DNA of 64,000 bases, from NCBI GenBank assembly GCA_041389005.1, contig JAWKSR010000001.1, forward strand, positions 38,465 through 102,464. Direction: 5' to 3'. Numbering within the stretch: position 1 is the first letter of the stretch; each line of letters opens with the position of its first letter. Below are positions 37,988 through 55,533 of the stretch, one piece after another. The stretch comes from Minisyncoccota bacterium (GTDB lineage: Bacteria > Patescibacteriota > Minisyncoccia > Phycocordibacterales > UBA918). The notes beneath the pieces were generated by a model, which saw only the letters and a program-made list of their open reading frames with translations, had not been told where the DNA came from and made no database searches. The translations under genes were made by a program, and so were the position numbers.

Positions 37988-38035
37988 GCGTTATTTTTCC
38001 GATAATTATAAACAAGGCGCTTCGCGCATATTTTC

Positions 38036-38987
38036 ATGCTTAGGAAAAGTACAGCCCTGTTGCTTTGTTTGTTGCTACTCAGTTGATTGGTTGAATCTTG
38101 CCCATGCTGGTTTTGGTATAACTCCTCCCTATGTACACGCAGCACGAGTCTGACCAGGAATTCTGTGTATGAACAAGAAATCCTTATGGTCCGTAGCGAC
38201 CCGACACGGGATCTTAAAGCTGTTATGAAGTAGATGCTCCGGAGATTGCTTCCTGGATTGAGATGTCGGAGAAAAGTATTCCATTACCAAAAGGAAACCA
38301 AAGTGTACCACTAACTGTACGGGTGACTGTGCCAGCAAATGCTGACTTCACCCGGTACGAAGGGGTGATGCGCATTAAGACGGCTACTCCTGATGACTCT
38401 GTTTCAGCTGGAGCGGTAAGTATTTCTCTGGGCGCGCAAGTAGATATCGATCTAACGGTAATTGACAAAGAGATTGAAGATTTTCGAGTCCGCAAGATAT
38501 CACTACCAGATCTAAACGAAGGACATAAACTCGGCTGGCTCTACTTCCCAGGCAAGATACGTTTTAAGATGCTCCTTGAAAACACTGGAAACGTAGATGT
38601 GGCACCATCTGAAGTTGCTTTCAATATCTATGATGCCTCGGGCAAAGCTCTGCTGAAGAGACTGCCCACACAAACCGTATAACTAAGGTGGCACCGTTTG
38701 CAACTGAGGAAGTGGAAGCGCATGTACCAACTCGTTTACCAGCTGGTAGCTATATTGCCCGCTATACCATTATGAATGGCGAGGAGGTGAAACAAGAAGG
38801 GGAATTGTCACTCAGTATATTGCCATATGGCAGTGTACAGGCGGCTGGTTATGGTTTCTTGGTTTCTCACACACCAACTTACATTATCTTTGATCGGTTT
38901 CTGTTATTGCGCTCATTTCACTGTTGTTCTGGTATTCACGGCGCGTGCCGCGCGGTTGATCATCATGTTGTTAAAACGGTCCTATAG
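38036..38987 (+). pseudogene. WxL-interacting-protein-like two-domain membrane protein, heavily frame-broken
   Basis: ATG 38036 gives MLRKSTALLLCLLLL. Fragments: GITPPYVHAA, VYEQEILMVRSDPTRDLKAV, ORF 38263-38682 (IPLPKGNQSVPLTVRVTVPANADFTRYEGVMRI; LENTGNVDVAPSEV), and ORF 38688-38987 (PAGSYIARYTI), followed by a hydrophobic C-terminal segment. At least 5 frame changes. The 3' end is uncertain. Confidence 0.55.
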
Positions 38988-40079
38988 TTCAGTGGCGCAT
39001 GTGCCTTCTGGTATTTCATCGCAGTAGCGGGGCAATTTGCACACGCGCAGTATGTTGCTACCACGACGCTGCAGCTGAGTAATTGTGGAGACTCCGTGGT
39101 ATCTGGGTCGGAGGCATGTGATGTGCCGGGTGAAACAGGTGAGTACAGTACCACTATTGCTGGTCGGCAGTGTGATGTAGATTGTCAGTTCGGACCATAT
39201 TGCGGCGATGGTATTTTACATACTATTTACAATGAAGAGTGTGATGACGCCAACAACACCAGCAATGACTTTTGTAGTGCTGAATGCAAGATCGAGTTTT
39301 CTGGTTCCGGTGGAGGCGGTGGAGGCGGTGGAGGCGGTGGTTCTGGTGGTAGTAACACGGAAATTGGAGATACCAGTGTGCAGGTAGGAGGTCTTGCCTA
39401 CCCGCAACGGACGGTCAACGTCCTTTTAGATGGTGAGTCTGTTGGCGATGTACGAGCTGATAGTGATGGAGAGTTTTCACTGTCAATAGATGCAGAGCCG
39501 GGTACTGCGACCTTGGGTTTTTGGTCAACTGACGCCTTTGGCACTCGTTCTATAACCTATTCAACAACGTTTGACGTCACGCAAGGTGCAGTAACAAACG
39601 TCAACGGCGTGTTATTGCCGCCAACAGTACGAGTGAATGATAATGAAATAAATCCAGGTGATATAGTCACTATCTCTGGTCAGGCACCACCCAACCGAGA
39701 GGTCAGTGTGTATGTAAATGACAGTGTAATTGCTGAAACGACTGCCAGTGGGGATGGTGATTGGTCAATTGCTTTTGACACTACTTCACTCACGCCAGCG
39801 GAGTACACGATTAAAGCTCGCTATACCACTGGTTCTAGCGCTCTCAAAACGGAAAGTGGCTTTAGTAGTGCGGTCGCGTTATTTGTTGGAGTTGATGGTA
39901 CCGTGGCACGTCCGTCTGACTTGAATCGCGATACGCGTATTAACCTGATTGATTTCTCCATCCTTATTTTTTGGTGGGGCACAGCAGGTGGTGATTCTGA
40001 TCCTCCGGCTGATATCAGCCAAAATGGGCGTGTGGGTCTCGAGGACTTTTCTATCCTTCTCTTTAACTGGACTGGTTAA
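38965..40079 (+). pseudogene. secreted protein: Cys-rich repeats, poly-Gly linker, two Ig-like units, dockerin-like pair (paralog of the 4193-6076 C-terminus)
   Basis: ORF 39096-40079 is open upstream to ~38990, encoding FSGACAFWYFIAVAGQFAHAQ (signal peptide). The nearest ATG, 38965, is in another frame. CGDSVVSGSEACD..CGDGILHTIYNEECDDANNTSNDFCSAECK resembles Myxococcus-type Cys-rich repeats. G12 linker. DLNRDTRINLIDFSILIFWW..DISQNGRVGLEDFSILLFNWTG. Confidence 0.75.
39309..39341 (+). repeat. tandem 9-bp repeat (GGTGGAGGC x3 plus partial) encoding poly-Gly
   Basis: Read directly. In-frame, so copy-number change would only alter linker length. Confidence 0.8.
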
Positions 40080-40100
40080 AACCCGACTAATGTCGGGTTT
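40077..40100 (+). terminator. rho-independent-type terminator overlapping the stop codon
   Basis: AAAACCCGAC-TAAT-GTCGGGTTTT. Confidence 0.7.
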
Positions 40101-40103
40101 TAA

Positions 40104-40195
40104 CCGATCCTGCCGAGAGGCAGGAATTCACGATGCCGTCTAGGCGAGGGAATAGGTGGGATCCAGTATTAAACGAAGGCACTTTCGCCAAGAAG
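40104..40195 (+). repeat. intergenic repeat element, copy B
   Basis: Aligns with 31596-31687 with about 9 mismatches. Hairpin 1 is conserved; hairpin 2 carries two non-compensated changes. Confidence 0.75.
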
Positions 40196-40611
40196 AAACT
40201 CTATACTTACGTATCTTTCGTTCAAAATCATCCGTTCGCGCTGAGAAACGTCTCCCCATGCGCTTTGCACACCGGTGTTTTCACGTATATTCTGTGCATA
40301 AGTAACCCACTCTTTTCTTTAGTGACAAGCTACAATGTACGAGTACTTGCCTTAGAAGATGGCCTTTAGACCGTCGTGTCTGGCGTCACTTTTAGCAAGA
40401 TGGGAACAAAAAATTGTGTGTTGTCGCATTGCTAGACGTGGCGCTGGAAGACACCAACAGCCGGGTGTTATGAGTGCAAGTATGCTTACGCTGTTTTTAA
40501 GATTCGGAGTGGAGACCGAATCTTATCCGGGGCACCCACCACGTGCTCCATTGGTACTGCTGTTGTCGCACAGACAGTATCCTGCTGTAAGCTAATATAT
40601 GTAGAGCTAAT

Positions 40612-41749
40612 ATGTTTCGCACGGGAACAACGTCCGTTCGAATGCTCCAAGCTGTATCGCTCACATTGAGTCTCGCTGTCCTTGTTTGGTCATTGGGACT
40701 CTCACCAGTATCGTTAGCCCAAGCGGCTAGCCTTACCGATGTCAAAAATACACTCACTGATTCAGATATCAGTGCAGCATCAGATCATGCTATCCAGTTT
40801 GTTATCCCCTCCGGCTCTGCCGGAGTGGAAGCAGGGGAGACCATTGTGGTCACCTTTCCAGCTGGGTTCACTATGGGGTCAGTCGGCGTAGCTGACATAG
40901 ATCTCGAGGTAGATGGTGTTGATGAGACACTTGCTGGTTCTCCTTCAGGAGCAACCTGGGGTGTCGGTGTAGCTGGACAGGACATCACCTTCACTAGTGG
41001 TAGTGCTACCATTGGTGCGAATGCAACGGTGACCGTAAAGTCGGCACCAACGCTGATGGTGGTTCAAATCAGGTAACCAACCCTGGTTCGTCTGGCTCGT
41101 ATGAGTTTGACATCGTATCAGGTAGTGGGGCGAATAACGACACCGGTTCAACCCAGTCGCTATCCTCGACAATGTCGGCGTAACTGCAAGTGTTGATACT
41201 ATTTTCAACTTCACTGTTGGCGGATTCCCATCTGTCACCGGTGTAGCGGTTAACGGCACCACTACCACAGCAACTTCTTCAGCTACGGAAATACCATTTG
41301 GCACGCTTAGTGCGGGTGAAGTGGTAACCGCAGCACAACTCTTGAATGTTTCAACTAACGCCAGTCAAGGTTTTGTTGTGACTATCGAGCAAGATCAAAA
41401 CTTACTATCGTCTACTGGCGCTGACATTGATGGCTTCGCAAATGGTGCGTACACCAACACACCAGCAGCGTGGTCTTCACCAAGTGCCACCATCGGTAAT
41501 GAAGATACCTATGGTCACTGGGGTATCACATCAAGTGATGACCTTAATGGCGGTGAGTTCAGTGCTGATCTATGGGTTGCTGCTAGTACGACCCACGGGA
41601 AATCTTCGAAGAATGATGGACCAGCTGACGGTGTGACCGACAGTGTTGGTTCCACCACCGTTGGTTTCCAGATTGAGGTGTCATCACTCCAGGAAGCTGG
41701 AGATGATTACTCCACAACGCTGACGTACATCGCGGCACCAACGTTCTAA
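40612..41749 (+). pseudogene. paralog of the 1363-2496 fibre protein (WxL-like C-terminus), at least 2 frame breaks at 41040-41320
   Basis: ORF 40612-41076 (LTDVKNTLTDSDISAASDHAIQFVIPSGSAGVEAGETIVVTFPAGF) and ORF 41321-41749 (GHWGITSSD..GDDYSTTLTYIAAPTF). The bridging residues (KIGTNADGGSNQVTNPG; VAILDNVGVTASVDTIFNF) lie in other frames. Confidence 0.75.
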
Positions 41750-41776
41750 CCACTACGTACACAGTACGTAGTACAT

Positions 41777-41799
41777 GCGATCAAGCTATGCTTGATCGC
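41777..41799 (+). terminator. 10-bp stem-loop after the fibre paralog
   Basis: GCGATCAAGC-TAT-GCTTGATCGC. No U-run follows. Confidence 0.4.
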
Positions 41800-41943
41800 A
41801 GGAAATCCATATACGTTTCCTAAAACGGTAAATAGCTTCGGAGCATACAAAAGTCCTATCTCCCACCACGAGAGGGGCTTTTTGCTTATTACTTTACACA
41901 CGAGTAACGTAAGGAGACCTTAGTAAAAGGCTATAATAGACCC

Positions 41944-42938
41944 ATGAGAAGTGTACTCGGTGGTGTTTCTTTAGCGGTATGTCTTTTGGTTTTGGCGGTG
42001 CCTGCACACGCGGCTACCTTGTACTTCGATCCGTACCAAAGTGAAATATATCCTGGAGATACGGTCTCCGTGGCGGTGCAGTAGATACCGATGAGGAGAG
42101 TGTATCAATGTTGTCGGCGCAGTGATAACGTATGATCCAACTATTGTGCCAGTCGATGTCTCGCGCGGACAATCGAATTACTCCAATCTGGGTGGAAGAA
42201 CCGACAATTGATACCGAAAATCACCAGATTACATTTGCCAGCGGTATTCCGAATGGCTATTGCGGACGGATTGCTGGAGACCCCCGATTGAGCAATATAG
42301 TACTCGAATTACTATTCCAAGCACCAGCATTTACCATTAAAACGGTAGAGAGTGAAAACACAGATATTGCCACCATTGCTTTTACAGATGCAACTCAAGT
42401 ACTTTTAAATGACGGCACGGGCACTCCAGCGCCTTTAACCACACTGGCAGCTGAGATATACAAACACGCTAAGCCACGAAGTGAGCCAGTTGATGAGTGG
42501 TTGCAGCGAGTACTGCAGGATACTATTCCACCAAATAAATTTAGTGTTACGCTTGATAGCAATGCGTCTATTTACGCTGGTCGTTATTACGTCACTTTCA
42601 ATACTACCGATAAGCAGTCAGGAATTGACCACTACGAGATTATGGAAGAACCAATTGACGACTTCGATCTCTTTGCGTGGGGTGGTGTTGATGCTCCGTG
42701 GCGTGAAGCTCGTAGGTCCTACTTATTGAAGGACCAAAGTCTTAATAGCACCATTCGCGTAAAAGCAGTTGATAAAGCCGGGAATGAATACGTGGCGGTG
42801 TATGTACCAGAAGAAGATATGCGAGGGGCGTCTGATCGCGATTTGGCAGGTTGGGGGTTGATTGTTGCAGGACTACTTTTGATTGGAGCAGCGATTGCTG
42901 CCGTGGTGTCAGTACCGCATACGATTGCGTCGTTATGA
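41944..42938 (+). pseudogene. membrane-anchored cohesin-like protein (frame breaks at ~42080-42130)
   Basis: ATG 41944 gives MRSVLGGVSLAVCLLVLAVPAHAATLYFDPYQSEIYPGDTVSVAV. Then GAVITYDPTIVPVDVSRG.. and ORF 42132-42938 (ITPIWVEEPTIDTENHQITFASGIPNGYCG), with C-terminal TM GLIVAGLLLIGAAIAAVV. Confidence 0.6.
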
Positions 42939-42969
42939 AACAACATTCCCAGATGAAACATAATATTAC

Positions 42970-44708
42970 ATGACCCGTACCTTTCATTTCAGCATAAAAA
43001 TGCTATTCATCGTTAGTATGCTATTAAGCTGGCAGGCAGTTGAAGCAGCGACACTCTCGCTTTCTCCCGGGACTGGCGTCTATACTGCCGGCGGCACTTT
43101 TACCGCTCGAGTAGTAGTAAACACTGCTGGTGAGTCTGTAAACGCCGCTGAGGAACCTTACGGTTTGATACGAATAGTCTCTCAGTAGTTGGTCTGACCA
43201 AGGGTTCGATTTTTAGTTTGTGGGCAGTTGACCCGACTTATTCCAATAGTGCTGGGACGATTAGTTTCGGCGGAGGATCACCAAGTGGGTATAGTGGCGG
43301 TGCGGGTACGGTTCTCTCGGTGACATTTCGAGCTAAGACAGCCGGGACTGGTAAGGTGACGTTTTCTAACGGCTCAGTCTTAGCAGCGGATGGTCGTGGT
43401 ACTAATGTGCTTACATCAATGAACAGTGGTTCGTACACTATCGCCGCCGCTGAAGTGCCCGCTGAACCAGAAATAATCGAGTATGTTGCTCCACCTGACA
43501 CCCCGGGTGCAGCTACTATCACCTCAACCACGCACCCTAACAGTGACGGCTGGTTCTTGAGCAACACAGCGGAACTGGAATGGACCGTACCAAGTGATGT
43601 GACTGCTGTGCGTACACTGCTTAGTGATAGCGCTGGCAGTATTCCTACCAAAGTATATGAACCCCCAATTAGCAGTCTTACAATCAACGATTTGGAGGAA
43701 GGGGTGCAGTATTTCCACTTGCAGTTAAGAAATGCTGATGGGTGGGGGCGTGTCGCACACTATCGCCTAGCGGTCGACACAACAGACCCAATCTTTGATC
43801 TTGAGTTACCAGAGGCAGCAGACCTCTCCAATCCAACTCAGATATTTAACTTTAGCGCGAGCGATACACCGTCCGGGATAGCCAAATATACTGTGCAGAT
43901 AGATGGTGGGGAGGTAGTGGATTTCATACCGCAGTCTGCTACTAGTAGTTATGTGACGCCGGCGCTCTTGCCTGGACAGCACAGTATGGTGGTTGAGGCA
44001 TTTGACCAAGCGGGAATAGTGTAGTTGACACCATTACATTTACTGTATTGGCGTTTGACCGTCCTGAATTCACTGAGTATCCAGTTCGTCTGAATGCTGG
44101 TGTGATTCCAGTGATTAAAGGTGTGACTAGACCACAGTCAGTAGTAACTATCTCACTAGAAAAGCAAGATGGTAGTGTTGCGCAAGAATACGAGGTCACC
44201 GCTGACGCGGCGGGAGTCTTTACATTTATCCCTGACGGCGCGTTGACCAACGGAGTGTATGAATTAACTGCCACTGCCATAGACACATATGGAGCCGCAA
44301 AGTGAGCGGTCTGAACCTGTGCGTATTGTCGTTGAAAAACCTGGGTACTTAACAATTGGAACTTGGGCAGTAAATGTATTGTCCGTATTGATACCACTCC
44401 TTGCGTTAGCAGGTTTTACTGCTGTTTGGAGTACTCTACGTGTGGCGGCGAAGCAAAGCTGTTGGTGTGGTGGTTAAGAAAGAGACAGCTGAGGCACTCC
44501 AGGTAGTTGAGAAACAGTTTGTAAACATGCACAAGGTGCTCGAGAAAGAAGCTAAAAATATGGCGGCTTCTCGGCGAACAAAAAAACTTACCAAAGCCGA
44601 GACTTCACTCATTGAGTCGGTGCGGATGGGACTTGCTGATGCTGAAAAAACTATCAAAAGGAGGTAGCAGATGTCGATGATATTATAGAAAAAATAAACT
44701 CACCATGA
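42970..44708 (+). pseudogene. membrane-anchored cohesin-like protein, paralog of 6611-8132 (at least 5 frame breaks)
   Basis: ATLSLSPGTGVYTAGGTFTARVVVNTAGESVNAAE; FSLWAVDPTYSNSAGTISFGGGSPSGY..VTFRAKTAGTG; Ig-like units; TM in ORF 44289-44477; charged tail. With one A added at 44656-44659 the frame ends in TGA 44706-44708, overlapping the next ATG (ATGA). Confidence 0.65.
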
Positions 44709-45355
44709 AATCCACACCGGTAATTAGTATTGTTGCTCTAATAGTATTTTGTCTAGTACTTTCCTACGGTTACGTTCGTTACACACAGGCTGCTACTCGA
44801 GCAACACTCGAAGCTCATATAGGGGAAGTCGAGTTAACCTTACGCGAAACCGCAGAAAATCTAAAGAACAACACTGAAGATGAGTTGGTTGCAACTTATG
44901 TTACTGATTGTTCTAATCGTACGAGAACTCAATTTGACATGCATCTTGATACACTGGCTTCATTATCCACGGCAGAATTAGAACAAACCGAGCTATTGTT
45001 TGAAGCGTGCGCTGACTATTTTGCTCACAAAAAACGAGCTGAAGTCGAAAAACTGCGGATGGAATTACGTTCATATGAACATTTAGTAGATACGTATGAT
45101 GTTATTGCACCAACAGCAAATCGTGTATGGCAACTTGAGGATTGGCACTTGTTTTTAAGTTTCCAGGAACAACTGGCCGCTCTTCTAGAGGCACAGGTCC
45201 CAATTCAGCAAGAAATTATTATCTTACTCAAGTCAGGTGTCCCAGAAGGTGATCCAGCGATTAAAAGTCAGGTTGAAGCAGCCCAGGAAATTACTCAAAC
45301 TGCCACAGTTACTACACGGCAGATGAGTAGTGTCTACACACGGCTGAGCCAATAG
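44705..45355 (+). CDS. hypothetical N-terminally anchored helical protein
   Basis: Intact 216-aa ORF. TM PVISIVALIVFCLVLSYGYV, then a helical E/L/Q-rich sequence. The start overlaps the upstream stop. Confidence 0.65.
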   Translation: MKSTPVISIVALIVFCLVLSYGYVRYTQAATRATLEAHIGEVELTLRETAENLKNNTEDELVATYVTDCSNRTRTQFDMHLDTLASLSTAELEQTELLFEACADYFAHKKRAEVEKLRMELRSYEHLVDTYDVIAPTANRVWQLEDWHLFLSFQEQLAALLEAQVPIQQEIIILLKSGVPEGDPAIKSQVEAAQEITQTATVTTRQMSSVYTRLSQ

Positions 45356-45360
45356 TACGT

Positions 45361-46106
45361 ATGCTTCGAGTACTGCAACGTTGGTTATACTACACATCAT
45401 TCATTTTTCGCACCCGCCGGTTTCGTACGGTTCGCTATGCATTCCCGGTTTTGATAACTGCTTTCTCGTTGATTGGCGCTGCCGTTTTGTTGCAAGGCAA
45501 TGCATCATATTTACGTATTGAATCTTCTCGTAGTGCGGTACAGCCAGGAGAAACTTTTTCTTTAGATTTGTATGCCGGGGCTCACGTACCAGTAAATGCT
45601 ATAAATATTGAGATTACATACCCAGATGAAGTTATTTCAGTTGAAAGTATCGATATTGGTAAGTCAGTAATCACTATCTGGACACAGGATCCGCATGTAG
45701 AGGGTGATCGTATAATTTTTAGTGGCGGAACCTACCGCAAGGGTTTTATTGGTGAGCATCTTATCGCCACCATTGATGTAAAAGCTCGCGAAGATGGTAC
45801 CGCTGTCTTTAGTGCTGAAAACATCACGTTTTTGGCTGGAGATGGCACTGGAGAGGCGGTTTCACTCTATGCCAGCAAAGATCAGACGGTAGCCGTAGCG
45901 GTAAACGCTACAGAAGGAACCTTGACCGGTACCGTTGACGTCTATGTATACACTGATATAGATGCTGACGGTGTCGTGACGATGACAGATATTCGGCTTT
46001 TATGGCAGCTTGGCACGATAAAGACCGCACGTTTGATTTTAATGGTGATAATCGAATGAGTTTTCGGGATTTTGCCATTATTTTGGCAGATTCTTTTAAT
46101 CGTTAG
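45361..46106 (+). pseudogene. membrane-anchored protein with cohesin-like domain and dockerin-like C-terminus (one frame break ~46020)
   Basis: TM VLITAFSLIGAAVLL. LRIESSRSAVQPGETFSLDLYAGAHVPVNAINIEITYPDEVISVESI..ITIWTQDP..IIFSGG..IDVKAREDG. DIDADGVVTMTDIRLLW, then in another frame FDFNGDNRMSFRDFAIILADSFNR with stop at 46104-46106. Confidence 0.65.
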
Positions 46107-46243
46107 AGCTGGCCCATTCCCATATTCATGCCTGTTGATAACTAAAGCGCGAAAGCGGGATATTTAGTAAAATTAGTAGTGTGATGGGCGAGTCTCGGGT
46201 GCCGAGACGACCTCTCGATACCCGAGATATGGCGTAAACAACG

Positions 46244-46658
46244 AATGCCATGCTCGAACAACGTGAAACCCAACAAAAAAGGTTACATAACGCTCGAAGA
46301 AGCAGCTAGTTTGCTGGATACACTCCCGACTACATCGGGCAGTTAATACGTGCTGGCAAAATCAAAGGTCAGCAGGTTTATGAGTGGTGTCACTTGGATG
46401 ACCACCGAAGAGGGTCAAGCATACAAAACTGCCCAACAAAAAGGCGTGCCCGCCAGTAGCAGACAAACTGGTTCAAGTGAACGTTATCGTTACTCCATAC
46501 CATTTTTGGGTGAGCGGTCTACACTGCTCTTGTTTGTCGTGCTTTTTGGTACGGCAATTTTGCTTATGCAATATGCCATTTATGTGGCGTTGACGGGTGA
46601 GCGTGCTTTTGGTGTCGAGACGCGTAATACCGAAATTGCTCTGCATGAGGATGTTTAA
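46244..46658 (+). pseudogene. HTH (excisionase/MerR-like) + TM protein (one frame break ~46310)
   Basis: KKGYITLEEAASLL, then after a frame change ...DYIGQLIRAGKIKGQQV..GVTWMTTEEGQAYK, then TM LLLFVVLFGTAILLMQYAIYVAL. Confidence 0.5.
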
Positions 46659-46661
46659 ATC

Positions 46662-48358
46662 ATGAAGCGAAAACAGACACAACCGAAGAAACATTTTAGT
46701 ACGCTGTATCAATTAGTGTTTGTTAATCGTGCACCTCGTTTGGCTACGTATGTGATGATTGTGGCATTACTAATCCAACCAATCATACCATTGTTCGCGG
46801 CAGAGGAACCGGATGCAACCCCAGCTACTATCACTGATGAACAAGAGTGAAGGACTCCACCACAGAGGTGTCGCCTACGGTAGAAGAGGTAATTGGACAG
46901 GGACGAACCTGATGAAACGGAAGAAGCGCTAGAGCTGGCTACTGCATCAAAGATTCAGATGCTATGGGAAACCACGGCAGACAGTATGACTGCTGAAGAG
47001 TCAAACGAAGCACCTGATGACTCCAGAAGAGGCATACGTGGTTTCGCAAGATGATTCGATAGTGGTGACAGCTAGCTCTTCTTTAGGTACTGATCCTGAG
47101 GCGGAGGAGCAGGATGTTGATGAATCTGCCACTTCAGCTAATCCTGTGGAGAATGAGGCACCTGCCACTACCAGCTCAACAAATAGTGGAGGAGGTGAGA
47201 CTTTGGAGTAGCGGCGAGAAGCAGAGACTGCTGAGGAGAAAATAATGGATTCACAGAAAACAGTGCAACAAGAGCAGAGACCGATGCGTCAGTTGAAGAC
47301 CTGCTGAGCACCAGTACCCTGACGTACGTTGCGAGCAACACCGAAGAGTATAGAGAGGAAACTGAAGCGCACGTGGTGTATAACAACGAAATGTCATTTG
47401 GTGCTAACGAGTGTACTGCAGTCGCTGATGGCTCTTACTACTGTGCTAATCCGTGGAGACGCCAGCCATAGAGACTGACGCTATTTTTGCCAAGTCAGAC
47501 AAAGATGGTGATACCGAGATCTTTATTCAAAAAAATGGAGAGCTCACCCAATTAACTGATAATCAGGTTGATGATCATGCGCCGTACTATGATCAGTAAG
47601 CGAAACGATTGTATGGCACCGACTTATTAACGATCGGTATCAAATTGTCTCCTACGATCTGACTGACGGCTCACGAACACGTGTTAAACCGAGTACAACA
47701 AATAATATGGAGCCAAGTCGTATTGGTGAGCTTACCGTATAAGCAACGTTGGATTGAAGACAACTGGGGAGATTATGCTCTTTGATGGTTCTGGAATTAT
47801 CCAGGTGACATAATTCGGCTCAAGATATTGCTCGAAATACGAGACGGGCATATACTATGGCAAACGATCGAAACTAATGGTGAACGTAGAGTCAGTGTGT
47901 ATGAAATTGCTACCGGACGGCTCTCGCTATTAGTGATACTGACACGGCGGAGTTATCGGTAATCCACGACTGGTACTTTTGTATGAAAAGACCTTCGCCA
48001 ATGGTGATGTAGTCGCGCGGGTATGATTTTGCTACTGGTGAAATCGTTTCCATAGCTGCGCTCCTGCTGAGCGCAGACGAGATACCAGATGGTGATAGTA
48101 CGGGAGAAACACGCGCACTAGCCACAACCAAAAATGAACCGAAAACTGACGTAGAACCAGTAGATGATGATGATACTCCTACCGGTCAAGCAACCACACA
48201 GCTAACAATGCGGTAGCATCATCCTCGACTTTAGCCCTTGATCTTTCCAACAGTACCGATGCAACGACTGAGGTAATGGCTACCAGTAGTCAAAAAAACG
48301 TAATTCTGATGTAGTTATCCCACCTAACGTAGCCAGTTCAAGCGCAGAAACGGGTTAA
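46662..48358 (+). pseudogene. membrane-anchored protein with acidic linker and beta-propeller-like repeats; the most degraded reading frame in the window
   Basis: MKRKQTQPKK..TM ATYVMIVALLIQPIIPLF, then an E/D/T-rich stretch. Fragments across all three + frames: AKSDKDGDTEIFIQKNGELTQLTDNQVDDHAPYYD, IVWHRLINDRYQIVSYDLTDGS, GYDFATGEIVSIAA. No ORF of 75 aa or more over ~1.5 kb. Confidence 0.4.
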
Positions 48359-48693
48359 AATAAGCGTACAACGTTATGAACGAACGTGTTCGCGAAGTTC
48401 GTGTTTTTGGCGATAGGAAAATTTGCTGTGCTTTTTAGCAGCGGCTATTTTCGTGTTTATGAGCATTGCGGACACTTTTTAACAGCACATGCAGCTGAAG
48501 TAACCATCAATGACTCAGTAAAGAAACACCAATGGTACTCGCCATACTCATGTAAATGCCGCTACCGTTTTTGTCAGCAATCAAGTGGGGTATAAATTTG
48601 CCGTTGACTCCGGAGCAGGGGGCGGAACCAATAACACCTGTGTGTATTTCAAAACTACCGATGGTGGTGCTACGTGGGGTTCAGAAGTGGTAG

Positions 48694-49623
48694 TTGATAG
48701 CCAAACCGACTGTCGGGGTAGTGGTTTGGTACGATCAGTGGACAGCAGGAGACACCGGCGATTATATCCATATTGCTACCTATGACAGTGGCTCTGATGC
48801 TATTTGGTACAACCGACTTGATACGGCGAGTGACACTTTACTGATGGGAAGTTCACCAGTTAATGCATCAACAAATTCTGGACAGGGTGGATCGTTTGCT
48901 TCAGGGGCAAACAAACCTTCTATTGCAAAGGGAACTGATGGCACGGTTTATGTTGCCATTGCTGATAATACCGATTCGTTTGTCATCGAGTGTAGTGCCA
49001 GTTGTAACAACACGACCGGTTGGACAGAAACCGGCACCAGCCCCCTTGACGCTACACCAGACTGGCCGTACCTACTACCACTTTCTGGAGGTGACATATT
49101 ACTTATAAACCGTGACGTATCAACCAACGATCTTGAATCCAAAGTATGGAATAACAGTAGTTGGGACGCTACGTTTACCAGTATTGATATCAATGCCCCA
49201 GAAAATAGCACCTACGATGTTGGTATGGCAGCCGTGTACAATCCAAATACCGATGAGGTGTATTTGGCTTACGCTGCTGATAATGCCACTTTAGGAACAG
49301 ACAATGATATTCGTACGGCAGTCTACTCAAGCGGTTCTTGGACTAGTGGACCAGATATCTTAACGGATGATGCTCGTGGTGTTCTTCAAGTAGCAATGAG
49401 TATTGACGAAAATACTGATGATATTTACGTTGCCTACACTATCGGTACTGGCACTACCCATGATGTCTACTGGGCGAGTTCAACATCAGCCTTTAATAGT
49501 TGGGGAGCAGAACAAGGACCGGTCAACGCTAGTAGCGATAACATTTATGGTATCGATCTGAACTATCTCGATGATCAACGTATGTTTGTATCCTGGTACG
49601 AAGCTAGTACGGACGGGATGTAG
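48694..49623 (+). CDS. second giant protein fragment: beta-propeller-like domain
   Basis: Just upstream, in another frame: CVYFKTTDGGATWGSEVVVD (Asp-box S/T.DGG.TW). The ORF carries repeated beta-strand motifs (DIYVAYT, EVYLAYAAD, TVYVAIADN). Confidence 0.65.
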   Translation: MIAKPTVGVVVWYDQWTAGDTGDYIHIATYDSGSDAIWYNRLDTASDTLLMGSSPVNASTNSGQGGSFASGANKPSIAKGTDGTVYVAIADNTDSFVIECSASCNNTTGWTETGTSPLDATPDWPYLLPLSGGDILLINRDVSTNDLESKVWNNSSWDATFTSIDINAPENSTYDVGMAAVYNPNTDEVYLAYAADNATLGTDNDIRTAVYSSGSWTSGPDILTDDARGVLQVAMSIDENTDDIYVAYTIGTGTTHDVYWASSTSAFNSWGAEQGPVNASSDNIYGIDLNYLDDQRMFVSWYEASTDGM

Positions 49624-49659
49624 GGAGACACGATTGCCAACATCGCGCCGGCAACCGTT

Positions 49660-51051
49660 GTGGCAGCAGCAGGCACTCAGCTCAGTACAGTGCGCGCCAG
49701 TTCGAGCGATGTGTATGTGGGTGGACAGTTTGTGGTCACAGAAGCGTCGTTGGCACGAAACGTCACCGATATCACTATCACTGAAAGCGGTACTGTAGAC
49801 GCTACTACTTATTTGAATAACATTCGTCTTTACTACGACCTCGATACTTCAGCCCCTTATGATTGTGCGAGTGAATCATACAGCGGCGCAGAGTCAACGT
49901 TTGGTGCCACCGACACCAATGGTTTCAGCGGTGCTAACGGAGTATCAAGTTTTAGTGACTCAGTGTCTATCACACCGACTCAAGCGTTATGTCTTTACCC
50001 AGTTATGGATGTGTTAAAAGACGCAGCTGATGGAGCAACTATCGAATTAGAAATAAGCAATCCAGCGGGTGACCTCTTGGTCACTGGCGGAGTGGTCGCT
50101 AAACCAAATGAAGTGGTGGCACTTGATGGCACGACTACCATTGTTGACTCTGACCTTACGCAAACTCATTATCACTGGCGAAATGATAATGGTCTGGAAA
50201 CCACTGCAACATCACGAACCAGCGGGAATCAGGACACCCCATTGTCTTCAGTCTTACAAGAAGTGCCAGTGCGGTTGCGCTTTGGTGTATCAAACGAAGG
50301 TTCTACTACGAGTGTACCAACTACCTTTCGGCTTGAGTACGCGCCTACAACTGAAACCTGTGATCTTGCTACCGGTTGGGTGGATGTTGGTGCCACTGAT
50401 GATGATTGGAACCTGTATGACTCAACCTTCTTGGTGAATGGACTTGATACTACTGATATCGCCAATGGTAGCGGTGGTGTTGATAACGAAAACAGCGTTT
50501 TCTTAAGTAGTAACGGCGGTCAACGCGATACCACCTCTGAAACGGGTGCGTTAACACTGGCAACCAATAACTGGGTGGAACTCGAGTATGCCATTGTTGC
50601 GTCTACGACTGCCTCAGAAGGTACCTCATACTGTTTTCGCTTGACCGACCAAGGTGAGACATTAGGTGCTTATAATAATTATCCACGAACAACCGTCGCG
50701 GCCGATGTGCGCGTGGCAGCTACCGGAACACAGGTAGCTAGTGTTGGAGTTGGGGCTAAGGATTTTCATATTGGTGGTGCTTTTACAATCAAAGAAAACA
50801 CCAGTTCGCGCAACGTTACGAGTATTACCATTGGGGAAACTGGTACGGCAGATGGTACCAGTGATATCTCAAGTACGACTTTATACTACGACCTCGATAC
50901 TTCAGCCCCTTATGATTGTGCGAGTGAATCATACAACGGTGCAGAGTCAACGTTTGGTACTCACTCGCTGTCTTTACTACTGATAATGGCACGACAACAT
51001 TTACTGATTCAGTGGGCATATCCACCACTGCTACTATGTGTGTCTACGTAG
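49660..51051 (+). CDS. second giant protein fragment: repeat unit 1 plus start of unit 2
   Basis: VYVGGQFVVTEASLARNVTDITITESGTVD..LYYDLDTSAPYDCASESYSGAESTFG; THYHWRNDNGLE..VRLRFGVSNEG..FRLEYAP..C..WVDVG..WVELEYAIV..SYCFRLTDQGETLGAYNNYP. The unit then restarts at ~50700. Confidence 0.75.
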   Translation: MAAAGTQLSTVRASSSDVYVGGQFVVTEASLARNVTDITITESGTVDATTYLNNIRLYYDLDTSAPYDCASESYSGAESTFGATDTNGFSGANGVSSFSDSVSITPTQALCLYPVMDVLKDAADGATIELEISNPAGDLLVTGGVVAKPNEVVALDGTTTIVDSDLTQTHYHWRNDNGLETTATSRTSGNQDTPLSSVLQEVPVRLRFGVSNEGSTTSVPTTFRLEYAPTTETCDLATGWVDVGATDDDWNLYDSTFLVNGLDTTDIANGSGGVDNENSVFLSSNGGQRDTTSETGALTLATNNWVELEYAIVASTTASEGTSYCFRLTDQGETLGAYNNYPRTTVAADVRVAATGTQVASVGVGAKDFHIGGAFTIKENTSSRNVTSITIGETGTADGTSDISSTTLYYDLDTSAPYDCASESYNGAESTFGTHSLSLLLIMARQHLLIQWAYPPLLLCVST

Positions 51052-51460
51052 TGACAAATGTGGCAGTGCTTGCCCCAAAATATGGCACTACCATTGATTT
51101 CAATTTACCAGATGGAGGCAATGATGTAGTGGTCTCAGGCAACGGCTCAACCGCTCCGTCAATATAATTGACATTACGGGGTCTACCACGATTGCTGGAC
51201 CGATTGTAACCCAGACTCATTACCACTGGCGTAATGAGTAATGGTTCAGAAACCAGCGCCACTTCTGCTACTGGCGGAGTGGAGGTTACCGTTCTTACTG
51301 ACTTTGCGCTTTCTACTCCTGTGCGTGTACGCTTTGGTCTCTCCAATAAAGGCGCGACTTCCACGCAAGCGGCGCAGTATCAGCTCGAACCACGGTATCA
51401 AACTCACATCGTGCAGTAATGTGGTACGGTATGGACGGCTGTTGATACTCTCAGTGATGC

Positions 51461-53092
51461 GTGGGATATGTTGACTCCAGTAATCTTACCAACGGTGAGA
51501 CGACAACCAATATCCCAGAGGGAGACGGTGGTGTTAGTAACGAAAACACCAGCTTCCTTAGTAGTAACGGTGGGGTGCGTGATACTGAGGCGCTTTCAGG
51601 CACTACAACTTTGACGGAAGCGCAGTATGTCGACTTAGAATTTAGTATCGCCTCGACCAAAGACACCAGCAACGATACTGCATATTGTTTTCGAGTTACT
51701 GACCAAGGAAATCCATTGCCGGTGTATGACACCTACGCAGAACTCGAGACCGTATCGCGCCGGGACTTTTTCGTACAACGTGCCACTACAACTGTTAGTG
51801 GTACTTCGACTGTCCTTGTCGCTGGTGTGGATTACACAGCACCAAGTTCAACTGCCAGTGCTTTCATTCGTATCACCAATACTCACCATACCGGGGCTGG
51901 TCAAGATGGGACGTTAGCTGCACCTGGTGGTAGTCAAAATGCCGATGACTATGGTGTGTATATTGAAAATCCTGATAACTTACTCACCTCTATCACCCTC
52001 GCGCGCGATGGAGACTCAATTAACAACTCGTATGTTGCTTGGGAGATTGTCGAGTATATCGGTGCAGCTGGTTCCGATAACGAAATGATCGTTCGCGATA
52101 GTGGAGTTGTGACTTATGCAGGAACTGATACTGTAGCGACCGGCACCACAGTCGCCACAGTGTCTGATGATAGCGATGTTGTGGTCTTCATTACGGGACA
52201 AAACCATCGTGGTGGTAACCGGACAGAGGCGTTTGCCCATCAGTCCACCGCATCATGGAATACAAGTAGCGCGGTGCCGGTGTTTGAACGCGGCGCAAGT
52301 GGTAACAATGCCGGACAAGTGAGTTACGCGGTGGTGGAGTTTACGGGACTGAATTGGAAGGTACAACGGGCAGAACATACGTACAGTGCTGCCGGGGTGG
52401 CTGAGACTGAAGATATTACAGCAGTCAATAGTCTCGAACGGACTTTTCTACATACGCAAAAACGCTACGGACTAATTGATGACCTTGATGACTTCGGACA
52501 CGAAGTCTATCTCTCAAGTTTGGGGGCAGTCACATTTTTGCTGGAGACTGACGCTGACATTGCACAAAACCATATATCCGTTGCCTGGGTCATCGAAAAC
52601 ACGCAGACAGGAACTGGTGCTATGGAAGTCAGACGTAATAACGGTATAACCCTTGGGGGAACGGAGCCGCTTTCCATATCGGTGTCTTTCCCATCTGGAG
52701 TAAACGCGATTAACAATGCGTCTATCTTCGGTATGTCGTACCATGATCAAACAGGAACAGCATACCCGAGAGTATTAGCAGGTTTGATACTGACCTCTAC
52801 TTCAACCTACGAAGTGTGGCGCAGTGATACAGGGGGCGCCTTAAACTACCGGGTAGAAGTGGTGCAGTGGCCAGTTGCTGACTTGGCAATACGACAGAAT
52901 GACTATCGCTTTTATGTTGATAATGATCAACTATTGCCAGTCGATGCCTGGCCACCAGGAGCCGCTAGCATTGGTGAAAACACGCCGATTACCGCTGTAG
53001 ATGAGCCCTTGGCAGAAGGAGACGTGGTGCGTATTCGGATGACGGTGCAAGCTAATAACGCTACGCTACCAGCTGGTCTTAAGGCTTTTTAA
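51461..53092 (+). CDS. second giant protein fragment: end of module 2, unassigned ~380-aa region, start of module 3
   Basis: YVDLEFSIASTKDTSNDTAYCFRVTDQGNPLPVYDTYAE, then a long unassigned region, then DYRFYVDNDQLLPVDAWPPG..GDVVRIRMTVQANNATLPAG. Confidence 0.75.
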   Translation: MGYVDSSNLTNGETTTNIPEGDGGVSNENTSFLSSNGGVRDTEALSGTTTLTEAQYVDLEFSIASTKDTSNDTAYCFRVTDQGNPLPVYDTYAELETVSRRDFFVQRATTTVSGTSTVLVAGVDYTAPSSTASAFIRITNTHHTGAGQDGTLAAPGGSQNADDYGVYIENPDNLLTSITLARDGDSINNSYVAWEIVEYIGAAGSDNEMIVRDSGVVTYAGTDTVATGTTVATVSDDSDVVVFITGQNHRGGNRTEAFAHQSTASWNTSSAVPVFERGASGNNAGQVSYAVVEFTGLNWKVQRAEHTYSAAGVAETEDITAVNSLERTFLHTQKRYGLIDDLDDFGHEVYLSSLGAVTFLLETDADIAQNHISVAWVIENTQTGTGAMEVRRNNGITLGGTEPLSISVSFPSGVNAINNASIFGMSYHDQTGTAYPRVLAGLILTSTSTYEVWRSDTGGALNYRVEVVQWPVADLAIRQNDYRFYVDNDQLLPVDAWPPGAASIGENTPITAVDEPLAEGDVVRIRMTVQANNATLPAGLKAF

Positions 53093-53173
53093 ATTACAAT
53101 ACGGCGTGCAGGACACAACCTGTTCAGCGGTGGCAAGTTGGATTGATGTTGGGGCAGTTGGCTCAGGCGAAAT

Positions 53174-53629
53174 TTGGCGCGGGTACGATACCGCTTTGTC
53201 AGACGGTACTGCACGTCTCTGGTGATCCCCCCAACTGGCGGAGACTTACTTATTGCTACTGCTGATGTTGCGGGGCGATTTGAAGAACAGAATCCTTCAA
53301 CTGCTAACCCGTACTCAGCTGGAGATGGGGAAGACACCGAGTATGACTGGGTGGTCGAACAAAATGGCGCGCGACAGCGTACCACCTACTGCTTCCGCAT
53401 GATCAACAGCGGCGATTCACCGCTTGACGGGTATCTTGATTACCCACAATTGCGTACAGAAGGTTATACCCCCGTAACACAAGATTGGCAGTGGTTCGAT
53501 GATGAAACGAATGAAACACCAAGCAGTCCACTGGCTGCCACGAACACAGCACCTTCAGCTACTGAAAAAGGAAATACCATTAAACTACGTGTTTCTGTAG
53601 CAGAGCTCAAGGAACTTACCCCAAGCTGA
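53174..53629 (+). CDS. second giant protein fragment: end of module 3, start of module 4
   Basis: EYDWVVEQNGARQRTTYCFRMINSGDSPLDGYLDYPQLRT, then DWQWFDDETNE..NTIKLRVSVAE. Confidence 0.7.
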   Translation: MARVRYRFVRRYCTSLVIPPTGGDLLIATADVAGRFEEQNPSTANPYSAGDGEDTEYDWVVEQNGARQRTTYCFRMINSGDSPLDGYLDYPQLRTEGYTPVTQDWQWFDDETNETPSSPLAATNTAPSATEKGNTIKLRVSVAELKELTPS

Positions 53630-54328
53630 CGCACGGTTCAAGTTGCAGTTTTCTGAATACGCTGATTTTTACCGTGGCTACTGATGTCGCGGCAACCAGT
53701 AGTTGTATTGCCAGCTCCACTTGGTGTTATGCCATACTGCAGACATCGACAACGCCACCATCACCACCAGTGTACTGACGAACGTGACGGCTGTGTTGCT
53801 GGGTTGGGCGCTGGGTGTGGTGTTCACAATGAATCACCTAATCAGTTAACCGGCTTCACACACAATGGCAGTACAACCATCGAGATGGAGTTTACGGTGT
53901 ATTTCACTAATATGATCATGTGGTTATGGCAAACTCTATTATTTCCGTCTTTTCGACTTGCAAAGTGGAACACCCGTCATACCAAACAGTGGTGAAGCGT
54001 ATCCTTCTATTGTCGGTGAACCGGCGGAGTTAACGTTTACCGTTGATGGAGTTAGTTCTAGTACGGTAACAAGAAGGCATCACCACCGATGTTGATACAA
54101 CAGCCACTTCCATACCATTCGGGCAGATTGCATTAGATACTGAATACGAAGGGGCATATCGACTAACGGTTGATACCAACGCTCTAGAAGGCTACCAGGT
54201 CTTAATGTATAGCACCCAAGACCTCTTAAGCAGTATTGGCGAAGACATTGACCCGATCACGAGTAGCAACAGTACTCCGGTAGCATGGAGTACTGCTTGC
54301 GTGTTTTGGGTACCACGCAGGAGATGAT

Positions 54329-54526
54329 GTGCTAGGAGCAGGTTCAACGCGATTTGCGCCGAATGATAGCTACGCAGCTGCCAGCACAACTCCAGCTGAG
54401 ATTATGTACAGCTCCACCCCGACTACCGACACAGAAGATGTTGTGTATAAATTACAGATCACTGACCAACAGCCAGCCGGAGATTACGCCACGAACATTG
54501 TATACTTAGTAATACCAGTGTTTTAG
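54329..54526 (+). CDS. second giant protein C-terminal fragment (WxL-like tail)
   Basis: YAAASTTPAEIMYSSTPTTDTEDVVYKLQITDQQPAGDYATNIVYLVIPVF parallels WVAASTTPREIFSHDGP..VGYQIEISPLQEAADDYSTTLTYIATPTF of 1363-2496. Confidence 0.7.
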   Translation: MLGAGSTRFAPNDSYAAASTTPAEIMYSSTPTTDTEDVVYKLQITDQQPAGDYATNIVYLVIPVF

Positions 54527-54528
54527 TT

Positions 54529-55533
54529 ATGTGGTATCGCGTATCTTTCAGCCTTTTCTTGCTTGTTTTTCTACCAACGGTAGTAGCTGCGCAAGCTATC
54601 AATCACAAAGTCACACCCCGAGTCATTGATCGAGAGGTTGAACCACGGGAGGCCTACCAGGAAGTGCTTACTATTGAGAACTTTCAGCCGCATAAGATCA
54701 CTCTTTTCCCGTCAGTCAACGCTGTTACGGTTGATGCGGGAGGGGATATTGTGGATTTTGTGCCACCCTCTATGTCAGATAACCGGGTAACAGTCACGAG
54801 CTGGCTCGAAATCAGCCGGGCTGGTATTGAGTTGGGTCCCGGAGCCACCACGTCACTGCCACTAACAATTGACATCCATCCACAAGCAGAACCAGGTGTC
54901 TATCACGCTTTTGTGGGATTTGGTACTGGTAGAAACCGAGATATTGCCGAGCAACAGGTAGCACAAGGCATTGCACCGGGTGTCGTGGTAACGCTTTCGG
55001 TCAGTCAAAATAACTACGAGTCATTGCGTTTAGATGGGTTTTATATTGATCGCTTTATTACGGGTTCGGGAGATAATACAGTTACCTACACACTCAAGAA
55101 TCCTGGTGTAGCAGCAGTAGTACCACGAGGTGAGATCATCGTTTCCAACAACCGAGGTGAGGAAGTGCGAACTATACCAGTCAATCCAGAGGCTTTGGAG
55201 CTTGGCGCAAACGAAACTCGCGTTCACACAGCATCACTTGATACCAGTAATTTATTGGGGAAATACAAGGCTTTTTTAACAGTTGATTACGGTAGCGAGC
55301 AATTGGTCTCAGTGTATGACACCGTTTTCTTTTACGTGGTTCCATGGCGGCAGATCCTGATTTTCTTTGGCGTCATCAGTTTTATCGTTATACTATTGAC
55401 ACTAATCATTTATCGCCGTTATGAGACTGATGAAGAAGAGGATGATGAGCATGGAGCAGATTACATACCACTCTTTATTAAAGCAGATCGCTCGACCGAA
55501 CGAGATCACGATATTGATCTTAAAAATCGTTAG
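54529..55533 (+). CDS. WxL-interacting-protein-like two-domain membrane protein
   Basis: Intact 334-aa ORF. Signal peptide ends in VVAAQA. HPQAEPGVYHAFVGFG; TLKNPGVAAVVPRGEIIV; C-terminal TM ILIFFGVISFIVILLTLIIY + acidic tail. Same architecture as 2585-3672. Confidence 0.8.
   Translation: MWYRVSFSLFLLVFLPTVVAAQAINHKVTPRVIDREVEPREAYQEVLTIENFQPHKITLFPSVNAVTVDAGGDIVDFVPPSMSDNRVTVTSWLEISRAGIELGPGATTSLPLTIDIHPQAEPGVYHAFVGFGTGRNRDIAEQQVAQGIAPGVVVTLSVSQNNYESLRLDGFYIDRFITGSGDNTVTYTLKNPGVAAVVPRGEIIVSNNRGEEVRTIPVNPEALELGANETRVHTASLDTSNLLGKYKAFLTVDYGSEQLVSVYDTVFFYVVPWRQILIFFGVISFIVILLTLIIYRRYETDEEEDDEHGADYIPLFIKADRSTERDHDIDLKNR

Follow-up and report, generated by a model that had tools for sequence, protein, structure and literature searches.

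Cohesin-like and dockerin-like proteins encoded around a Pam-type pilin gene in a conserved surface operon of a Minisyncoccota bacterium

Bacteria of the candidate phyla radiation (CPR) account for a large part of the diversity of bacteria, and they apparently live attached to host cells. To our knowledge, it is largely unknown how these bacteria keep adhesins and pili on an envelope that has a wall but no outer membrane. Here, we analysed a stretch of 64,000 nucleotides from a Minisyncoccota bacterium (GenBank assembly GCA_041389005.1, contig JAWKSR010000001.1, positions 38,465 to 102,464 of the forward strand), hereafter referred to as the window, and in particular an operon at about 38.0 to 46.7 kb in which genes for proteins with cohesin-like and dockerin-like modules surround a pilin gene. 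The genes of the window are all on the + strand and its G+C content is about 46%. Many of the reading frames are interrupted by single-base frameshifts, which were rejoined before domain analysis. The operon, in which six genes are named gA to gF, is composed as follows (Ig, immunoglobulin).

~38010-38984 (start approximate), + strand: candidate pilus chaperone with at least three frameshifts; signal peptide, two beta-sandwich domains, C-terminal transmembrane segment; about 310 residues in relatives
38965-40079, + strand: gA, about 370 residues; signal peptide, Cys-rich acidic repeats, Gly-rich linker, two Ig-like domains, dockerin-like C-terminus
~39168-39296, + strand: Cys-rich acidic repeats of gA
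39915-40076, + strand: C-terminal dockerin-like module of gA
40080-40611: non-coding gap of 530 bp between gA and gB
40612-41749, + strand: gB, Pam-type pilin of about 380 residues; signal peptide, N-terminal beta-sandwich, linker strand, C-terminal acceptor domain
41944-42938, + strand: gC, about 330 residues; signal peptide, cohesin-fold domain (~42013-42464), Ig-like domain (~42546-42803), C-terminal transmembrane helix (~42834-42932)
42970-44667, + strand: gD, about 565-580 residues; signal peptide, cohesin, three Ig-like stalk domains, transmembrane segment, cytoplasmic coiled-coil tail of about 75 residues
~43084-43442, + strand: cohesin domain of gD
44705-45355, + strand: gE, 216 residues, intact; N-terminal transmembrane segment followed by a helical region; directly before gF
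45361-46106, + strand: gF, about 249 residues; N-terminal basic stretch and transmembrane anchor, cohesin fold (~45505-45903), dockerin-like C-terminus (~45949-46103); one frameshift, in a T run at ~46003

A second module, paralogous to this one and referred to below as module 1, lies near the beginning of the window.

1363-2496, + strand: Pam-type pilin
2649-3672, + strand: WxLIP-type protein with a C-terminal transmembrane helix; one frameshift
4193-6076, + strand: paralogue of gA, 627 residues, intact; pilin-like N-domain and linker strand, Ig-like domains, dockerin
6611-8095, + strand: paralogue of gD, 494 residues, intact; signal peptide, cohesin, Ig-like domains, transmembrane segment, cytoplasmic tail

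Sequences and models indicate that all products have Sec signals or signal-anchors. gC and gD can be described as type I membrane proteins, each of which bears one cohesin-fold domain, placed at the outer end of a stalk of Ig-like type. In gF, an N-terminal transmembrane anchor is followed by a cohesin fold and a dockerin-like tail, while gA is a soluble secreted protein, in which Cys-rich repeats and Ig domains are followed by a dockerin-like tail. The gB pilin and the two-domain, transmembrane-anchored candidate chaperone are encoded amid these cohesin and dockerin genes. A preliminary description, made from the sequence alone, had placed three cohesin-like proteins and two dockerin-like modules between 38965 and 46106, with both module types in the last protein. 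After the frameshifts were rejoined, the modules were found at essentially these positions on the + strand, and the protein with an N-terminal transmembrane segment, a cohesin and a dockerin is gF, as seen in its model and its Dockerin_1 match. The gB pilin, located between the modules, was absent from that description.

The cohesin-like character of gD and of its paralogue is apparent from family models. Against the gathering score of Pfam Cohesin (PF00963), 24.1 bits, gD scored 40.2 bits and the 6611-8095 protein 29.0 bits; gD also matched Big_13 with 45.6 bits. For gC and gF, the assignment comes from models of structure. The AF2 model of gF, for which 111 sequences were used, reaches a pLDDT of 81.8 on average, with values above 90 across the beta-sandwich, and its top 50 Foldseek matches in the PDB are nearly all cohesins, cellulosomal as well as non-cellulosomal (E 2e-8 to 6e-6, target TM-score 0.65-0.80). 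In the model of gC (pLDDT 90.3), the cohesin-fold domain is joined by a second Ig-like domain and by a long helix at the C-terminus. Its best match is 2xdh, a non-cellulosomal cohesin of A. fulgidus (E 5e-8, TM-score 0.74), followed by 6kgf/6kge, 4wi0, 3fnk, 1zv9 and 1tyj, which include CaCohA2 and type II cohesins; the other matches are generic two-domain Fab structures. Both models thus predict the jelly-roll beta-sandwich of about 140 residues that characterizes cohesins.

Comparisons between families agree with this. The gC and gF families align to each other in hhalign with 96% probability (E 2.8e-9), and the 6611-8095 protein is matched by the cohesin profiles of both the gF family (E 2e-16) and the gC family (E 5e-11). 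When matches were counted at E<=0.01, Pfam Cohesin was found in 28 of 111 members of the gF family and in 25 of 120 members of the gC family, where no other Pfam family recurs; the scores of gC orthologues range from 14.6 to 16.5 bits. Family hidden Markov models (HMMs), run over 940 six-frame fragments, detected exactly four cohesin-like modules in the window, in 6611-8095, gC, gD and gF, each protein having one such domain, together with exactly three dockerin-like modules, in 4193-6076, gA and gF. The earlier count had been at least four and three. One relative of gF bears the automatic JGI label 'archaellum component FlaF', which was disregarded as the fold result gives it no support.

The tails of gD (44416-44664) and of its paralogue (7800-8092) are coiled-coil-like and cytoplasmic, with only faint family matches (FlaX-like, SLATT_6). 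A basic motif, SRKTKKLTKAEA..L, is conserved in the tails of gD and its orthologues (L001:4100-4318), which hints at a cytoplasmic partner.

The dockerin-like modules were located by a search for the pattern of the calcium loop and the start of the helix in all six frames, which returned six loops that form three C-terminal pairs, in 4193-6076, gA and gF, and one isolated chance match. The paired loops are of the form D-x-N/D-x-D-G...D. The loops of gA lie at 39918-39956 and 40011-40049, and those of gF at 45955-45993 and 46035-46073. In both pairs, loop positions 1, 3, 5 and 12 are acidic or amide residues, and both proteins show the two tandem EF-hand-like segments of about 22 residues, each a calcium loop followed by a helix, that define a dockerin. 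With the gathering score of Pfam Dockerin_1 (PF00404) being 22.9 bits, the 4193-6076 protein scored 30.5 bits (as it did, equally, on Big_6), gF barely passed with 23.3 bits, and the intact gA orthologue L004:1925-3034, which is 70% identical to gA, reached 26.4 bits. In the HMM searches, which had been proposed earlier, gD, 6611-8095, 4193-6076 and the gF dockerin pass, while the window copies of the gC and gF cohesins and of the gA dockerin stay below threshold.

In the gF family, 96 of the 111 members match Dockerin_1, with a best E of 2.8e-10. Their alignment gives the tail consensus TDIDGDGxVTLxDISxFMxAW...YDFNGDGRMTFRDFxIILADSF, in which residues D199, D210, D226, D230 and D237 are invariant, and the tail is the best-conserved part of the protein after the beta-sandwich core. 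The AF2 model predicts helices at 208-220 and 235-246, each preceded by a non-helical loop. The tail had been thought at risk from the frame break near 46020; with this break resolved as the loss of one T at ~46003, it persists, and it is in frame in every relative. gA also carries the Cys-rich repeat suspected earlier: TIGR02232 matched two stretches with 47.6 bits (cut-off 20.8), and DUF4215 scored 33.9 bits (cut-off 27). In addition, Big_6 matched gA with 44.4 bits.

The pilin gene suggests a connection of the operon with the Pam pilus system, which was described from Ca. Mycosynbacter amalyticus in a 2026 preprint (10.64898/2026.03.03.709456). According to this work, Pam pilins have two domains, and the strand that links them is donated to the C-terminal domain of the neighbouring subunit; the system further includes transmembrane-anchored PapD-like chaperones, a single-domain tip subunit and a transmembrane-anchored terminator (10.64898/2026.03.03.709456). 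The components are named PamA and PamB (pilins), PamC and PamD (chaperones), PamR (anchor) and PamT (tip); PamR is RbmA-like and has a transmembrane segment, and anchoring by it is so far a model (10.64898/2026.03.03.709456). The NCBIfam model NF058581, CPR_Pam_pilin_C ('Pam pilus system pilin subunit'), has a curated cut-off of 55 bits. It matched the last 150 residues of gB with 23.6 bits, the 1363-2496 pilin with 24.4 bits, and, taken together, this pilin and orthologues with 19.9-31.8 bits. The matches of gB-type pilins span model positions 3-148 of 148 at the protein C-terminus (E 1e-7 to 6e-4), and gB is 68% identical to the 1363-2496 pilin. These values are consistent with gB-type pilins being distant relatives of the Pam pilins, and not members by the NCBI threshold. 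Searches of PDB sequences with gB and a gD orthologue (phmmer) and with a 7-sequence pilin profile (hmmsearch) returned nothing meaningful; PamA and PamB were not retrievable there.

Two further proteins of the window share parts of the pilin. The N-terminal region of the 4193-6076 family aligns to the pilin family in hhalign over 242 columns, the linker among them, with 98.8% probability (E 4.6e-17). The alignment spans the N-terminal 290 residues of the family, so that what had been called a fibre-like N-domain is in fact a pilin N-terminal domain with its linker strand. After the linker, the 4193-6076 protein has Ig-like domains and the dockerin in place of the acceptor domain. The reverse is found at the end of a giant protein (54070-54526), which carries the acceptor domain alone, the third such domain of the window, both halves of the region matching NF058581 (18.1 and 22.1 bits). 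The 2,108-residue relative L006:13222-19548 tiles 49657-54523 in tblastn. This giant protein, whose end is at 54526, is a candidate for the tip adhesin.

Three two-domain proteins with a C-terminal transmembrane segment adjoin the pilin-type genes. Two pass WxLIP_PGBD (gathering score 27.3): the region 2649-3335 scored 33.5 bits, and an orthologue of 54529-55533 scored 28.9 bits. The third, 38010-38984, which has the 2649-3335 region as its paralogue in the window, matches nothing; its segment 38058-38858 is tiled over three frames by the intact orthologues L004:989-1921, L006:2337-3287 and L008:6155-7099 with 55-78% identity (tblastn). In architecture, it would correspond to PamC and PamD as described (10.64898/2026.03.03.709456).

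The gene order was compared in eleven related loci, L001 to L011, which sample four distinct lineages and include contigs of 0.99 and 1.08 Mb, and it is intact throughout; related genomes thus keep the module set, a check that had been proposed earlier. The closest genomes, with protein identities of about 55%, are Patescibacteria or Saccharibacteria metagenome-assembled genomes, as are all the named relatives; both this and their size of about 1 Mb agree with the restriction of the Pam system to CPR bacteria. For the operon itself, the order is fn3 protein, ABC ATPase, FtsX permease, 620-residue secreted protein, candidate chaperone, gA, a small gene that varies, pilin, gC, gD, gE and gF. It was found unbroken, with identities of 42-63%, in four further lineages that were sampled from metagenomes of marine and other origin. 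Module 1 runs in the order DinB, pilin, WxLIP protein, small transmembrane protein, pilin-like dockerin protein, HSP20, cohesin-transmembrane protein and a giant gene of about 7,800 codons, and it is conserved in L010 and L011, including a complete genome of 0.99 Mb. gD is 54-55% identical to its counterparts in L001-L003. The operon occurs widely: more than 1,288 proteins belong to the gC family, in which precomputed Pfam domains are absent, the gF family has at least 288 members, and the pilin-like dockerin family of 4193-6076 has at least 499, of about 635 residues, with a precomputed PF00404 in all 120 members listed.

Every examined locus that reaches far enough upstream (L004-L011) has cohesin-fold and dockerin-like modules in one operon. 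Moreover, the C-terminal 256 residues of gA are 43% identical to the 4193-6076 protein, gD is 37% identical to the 6611-8095 protein over 372 residues, and orthologues of 6611-8095 adjoin a 4193-type gene in L010 and L011. Judging from this paralogy, it appears that a dockerin gene was duplicated along with a cohesin gene, giving 4193-6076 and 6611-8095 in one module and gA and gD in the other, which is the pattern expected if they work as a pair.

In our judgement, the chances are about even that the region forms the middle of a conserved, Saccharibacteria-like CPR surface island, in which a Pam-type pilus module is combined with a non-cellulosomal cohesin-dockerin set that tethers surface proteins. 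The gB pilin between the modules and the pilin N-domain of the 4193-6076 protein are the reasons for taking the cluster, by its gene content, as part of a conserved CPR island of pilus and adhesin genes and not as a free-standing cohesin-dockerin system. In such an island, the transmembrane-anchored cohesins would be sockets on the outer face of the membrane, and the dockerin-like tails of gA, gF and the 4193-6076 protein would bind them through their two calcium loops. gA and the 4193-6076 protein, in which no sortase signal is evident, would be tethered non-covalently outside a cell that has no outer membrane. gF, both anchored and dockerin-bearing, could form a bridge to gC or gD, or associate with itself. 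Since the dockerin gene and the cohesin gene of either module have paralogues in the other, gA would likely be the partner of gD, and 4193-6076 that of 6611-8095. Such a system would probably serve attachment to host cells, as expected of an epibiotic CPR organism. While binding between the cohesins and dockerins of the operon is something we infer, the 'display network' proposed in the preliminary description seems a reasonable reading, because membrane-anchored cohesins adjoin secreted dockerin-tailed proteins and because of the apparent joint duplication.

Several observations weigh against this interpretation. The window copies of gC and gF score below the Pfam Cohesin threshold, and that of gA, with 20.6 bits, is about 2 bits under the threshold of Dockerin_1. 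The generic model EF-hand_1 also matches 100 of the 111 gF relatives, and EF-hand pairs that resemble dockerins are known in proteins that do not bind cohesins. The arguments for pairing are co-location and co-duplication. The candidate chaperone beside gA has no significant match in Pfam, the Pam pilin scores of 20-32 bits are all below the cut-off of 55, and the numerous frameshifts of the window copy leave expression in the source genome unproven. The Pam preprint names neither cohesin nor dockerin (10.64898/2026.03.03.709456), and full-text literature searches retrieved no paper that ties cohesin or dockerin modules to CPR pili and none on this arrangement.

A more specific version of the tethering interpretation, which we put forward tentatively and consider doubtful, is that a cohesin-dockerin pair is the membrane anchor of the Pam-type pilus, with the pilin-like dockerin protein as chain terminator and the giant acceptor-domain protein as tip adhesin. 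As the 4193-6076 family has the pilin N-domain and the donor strand but lacks the acceptor domain, it could cap the base of the fibre: the protein would donate its strand, close the cell-proximal end and stop growth, and its C-terminal dockerin would plug into a transmembrane-anchored cohesin, either 6611-8095 or gD. Further adhesins would be displayed by gA and gF through these same sockets. If true, a bacterial pilus would be anchored here in a new manner, non-covalent and calcium-dependent, without an usher, a sortase or a transmembrane pilin, and cohesin-dockerin pairs would have a new physiological role.

The cohesin-like and dockerin-like modules could instead be unpaired, acting as independent structural or adhesive units of adhesins that merely share an operon, the former as beta-sandwich spacers or ligand binders and the latter as EF-hand tails stabilised by calcium. 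This would fit with the marginal or sub-threshold scores of several window copies, with the gF tail being matched by EF-hand models as often as by Dockerin_1, and with the absence of a tandem-cohesin scaffoldin; most non-cellulosomal cohesin and dockerin modules, besides, have no assigned function (PMC9012536). Independent units, however, do not account for the presence of both module types together in each of L004-L011 and their duplication as a pair, nor for the dockerin tails being among the most conserved segments of gF, and in the predicted topology, the two kinds of module share one side of the membrane. We consider this explanation rather unlikely.

The cohesin-fold membrane proteins could also belong to the pilus machinery itself, as an assembly platform or an anchor resembling PamR, which would bind pilin subunits or only the 4193-6076 protein, and not dockerins generally; the beta-sandwich fold would then be what they share with cohesins. 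In every relative, gC and gD directly follow the pilin gene, the gross architecture of gC (signal peptide, two beta-sandwich domains, C-terminal transmembrane segment) is that of PamR, and the 4193-6076 family, with its pilin N-domain and linker but no acceptor domain, is built as a chain terminator would be. On the other hand, cohesins rank first among the Foldseek matches of gC, with RbmA and PapD-type chaperones absent from the top 50, gD and 6611-8095 pass Pfam Cohesin, and the conserved dockerin-like tails of gA and gF in the same operons would be left unexplained. We judge it unlikely in this form; the idea that the cohesin proteins are pilus factors and the cohesin-dockerin view of pilus anchoring do overlap.

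The frame breaks suggest a further possibility, that the locus is a decaying set of pseudogenes in the source genome and that its modules are relics without function there. At least 13 breaks lie between 38.0 and 46.7 kb. gA has a frameshift near 38992, which leaves its start region uncertain, gB has two (~41037 and ~41153), gC two (~42081-42095 and 42176) and gD four (43152, 44015, 44297 and 44415). As a consequence of the frameshifts, the NCBI entries are truncated products, such as R3B69_00475 (260 residues) and R3B69_00505 (232 residues, gF). The stretches 38000-47900, 11100-31600 and 50900-54500 are dense in frameshifts, while the regions 4.2-8.1 kb and 31.8-37.9 kb have none. Comparison with orthologue proteins, however, resolved three of the breaks as single-base errors in homopolymer length. 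At 43152 in gD, GAG GGA has become GAGGA through the loss of a base in a GGG run; at 44015, GGA AAT has become GGAAT in an AAA run; and at ~46003 in gF, CTTTTT has become CTTTT, the T run being one base short (GGG to GG, AAA to AA and TTTTT to TTTT). tblastn searches with orthologues showed that amino-acid identity to relatives remains at 50-78% on both flanks of each break, and the orthologous genes are intact in all relatives. Because of the homopolymer losses and the identity kept across the breaks, these were treated as assembly errors, and their pattern fits that of long-read consensus errors. Decay is therefore an improbable explanation. An alternative genetic code as the cause of the broken reading frames was rejected, since the breaks are frameshifts and not in-frame stops, the three resolvable ones lying in homopolymers.

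A complex that degrades polysaccharides in the manner of a cellulosome, in which gF would be the adaptor scaffoldin, the analogy drawn in the preliminary description, can be dismissed as scarcely credible: gF does join a cohesin to a dockerin, and the remaining cohesins have membrane anchors, as in anchoring scaffoldins, but the likeness is only formal, because Pfam and NCBIfam scans found no enzymes, carbohydrate-binding modules (CBMs) or tandem cohesins, the dockerin proteins having no glycoside hydrolase, carbohydrate esterase, lyase or CBM and carrying Ig-like, Cys-rich repeat, pilin-like or, in gF, cohesin domains instead, in CPR-type genomes of about 1 Mb with one cohesin per protein.

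Among known systems, the closest are the non-cellulosomal cohesins and dockerins (A. fulgidus 2xdh; Clostridium perfringens 2vo8, 2jh2 and 2w1n; ANME archaea). They have in common with the present set single cohesin folds, dockerins with duplicated loops, hosts that do not degrade cellulose and the lack of cellulosomal glycoside hydrolase cargo, and 2xdh, 2vo8 and 2jh2 are among the best Foldseek matches of gF, as 2xdh is the best of gC. As in most archaea, there is no multi-cohesin scaffoldin (PMC9012536). The set differs from these in its CPR host, in its strictly conserved operon with an interleaved pilin of the donor-strand-exchange type, and in the position of its cohesins on transmembrane stalks. 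Archaeal cohesin-dockerin pairs bind each other, as given in the part of PMC9012536 that cites Peer 2009 and Haimovitz 2008, and cohesin and dockerin modules occur outside cellulosomes with a physiological role that is mostly unknown (PMC9012536).

With the anchoring and adaptor scaffoldins of cellulosomes, the operon shares cell-bound cohesins, secreted proteins with dockerin tails and, in gF, the union of a cohesin and a dockerin. The type I cohesins of C. thermocellum OlpA and OlpC (3ul4, 4dh2) and the adaptor ScaA of Acetivibrio cellulolyticus (3l8q) are among the top fold matches, although identity to cellulosome cohesin structures is only 11-18%. Enzymes, a CBM and tandem cohesins are absent, and anchoring is by transmembrane helices, as opposed to the SLH (S-layer homology) domains or the sortase of cellulosomes.

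The similarities to the Pam system include the CPR or Saccharimonadia type of the genomes, the pilin with its N-terminal beta-sandwich, linker and C-terminal acceptor domain, the neighbouring two-domain proteins with a C-terminal transmembrane segment, and an acceptor-only protein that follows the logic of the tip subunit. With NF058581 scores of 20-32 against 55 bits, however, the operon would be at best a divergent branch, and while it has cohesin and dockerin components, the anchor of the preprint is an RbmA-like transmembrane protein and not a dockerin-tailed pilin-like protein. The window also shows a resemblance to the WxL operons of Firmicutes, as 2649-3672 and the orthologue of 54529-55533 pass WxLIP_PGBD (WxLIP_PGBD/DUF916 type) and end in a transmembrane helix; unlike in those operons, WxL-domain proteins were not detected, and 38010-38984 has no family match. 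The 'essential dockerin-domain protein' SEML1_0315 of Southlakia epibionticum (Cell 2023) was considered as a functional link and set aside for lack of direct support: it is a protein of 927 residues in an unrelated neighbourhood, oriented opposite to hydrolase neighbours and annotated only with Ig/PapD-like domains.

In the operon, right beside a pilin gene, the membrane is provided with sockets of the cohesin type, and secreted and pilin-like proteins are provided with dockerin plugs. If the modules pair, this would be a simple answer to the tethering of surface proteins, and perhaps of pili, in CPR organisms, cohesin-dockerin biology would reach well past polysaccharide degradation, and protein engineering would gain orthogonal cohesin-dockerin pairs. 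Without such pairing, the result would be just the correct domain annotation of a conserved adhesin operon.

The remaining features of the window that adjoin or resemble the operon are as follows.

46250-46658, + strand: protein with HTH_17 and a transmembrane segment, about 133 residues, frameshifted; located by tblastn with L006:10944-11345
54070-54526, + strand: Pam acceptor domain at the end of the giant surface protein (~46900-54526; about 2,100 residues in relatives)
54529-55533, + strand: WxLIP-like transmembrane protein, after the giant protein
55421-57142: LytR_C protein, after the WxLIP-like transmembrane protein

Neither the window copy of gE nor its orthologues matched any family in Pfam or NCBIfam. 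The orthologues, of 217-221 residues, occupy the same position in L001, L002 and L004-L009, and their stop overlaps the start of gF in L001, L002 and L004. Directly downstream of gF, the gene for the helix-turn-helix (HTH) transmembrane protein is found in L001, L002 and L005-L007; HTH_17 scored 25.7 bits in an orthologue. Between gA and gB, a GC-rich hairpin at ~40082-40103 lies immediately 3' of the gA stop, inside the gap 40080-40611, which matches no Rfam family; an Rfam scan and a tRNA scan of the window gave no match. The position of the gap is taken in relatives by a NUDIX gene (L004) or by an open reading frame of 101 codons (L006, L007).

In module 1, the segment 6125-6430, between 4193-6076 and 6611-8095, holds a short fragment of an open reading frame where L010 and L011 have an HSP20 gene of 155 codons, and by this position it is probably a frameshifted HSP20. 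The fragmented region 8254-31573 corresponds to the single gene of about 7,800 codons that directly follows the first cohesin-transmembrane gene in relatives, with DUF2341 and pentaxin matches in L010 and L011. After the operon, the window and the other relatives have the HTH transmembrane protein, an acidic protein and the giant adhesin, while in L004 (11078-20759) a HAMP protein, a PAS histidine kinase, a response regulator and the type IV pilus proteins PilB, PilC and PilM are encoded there.

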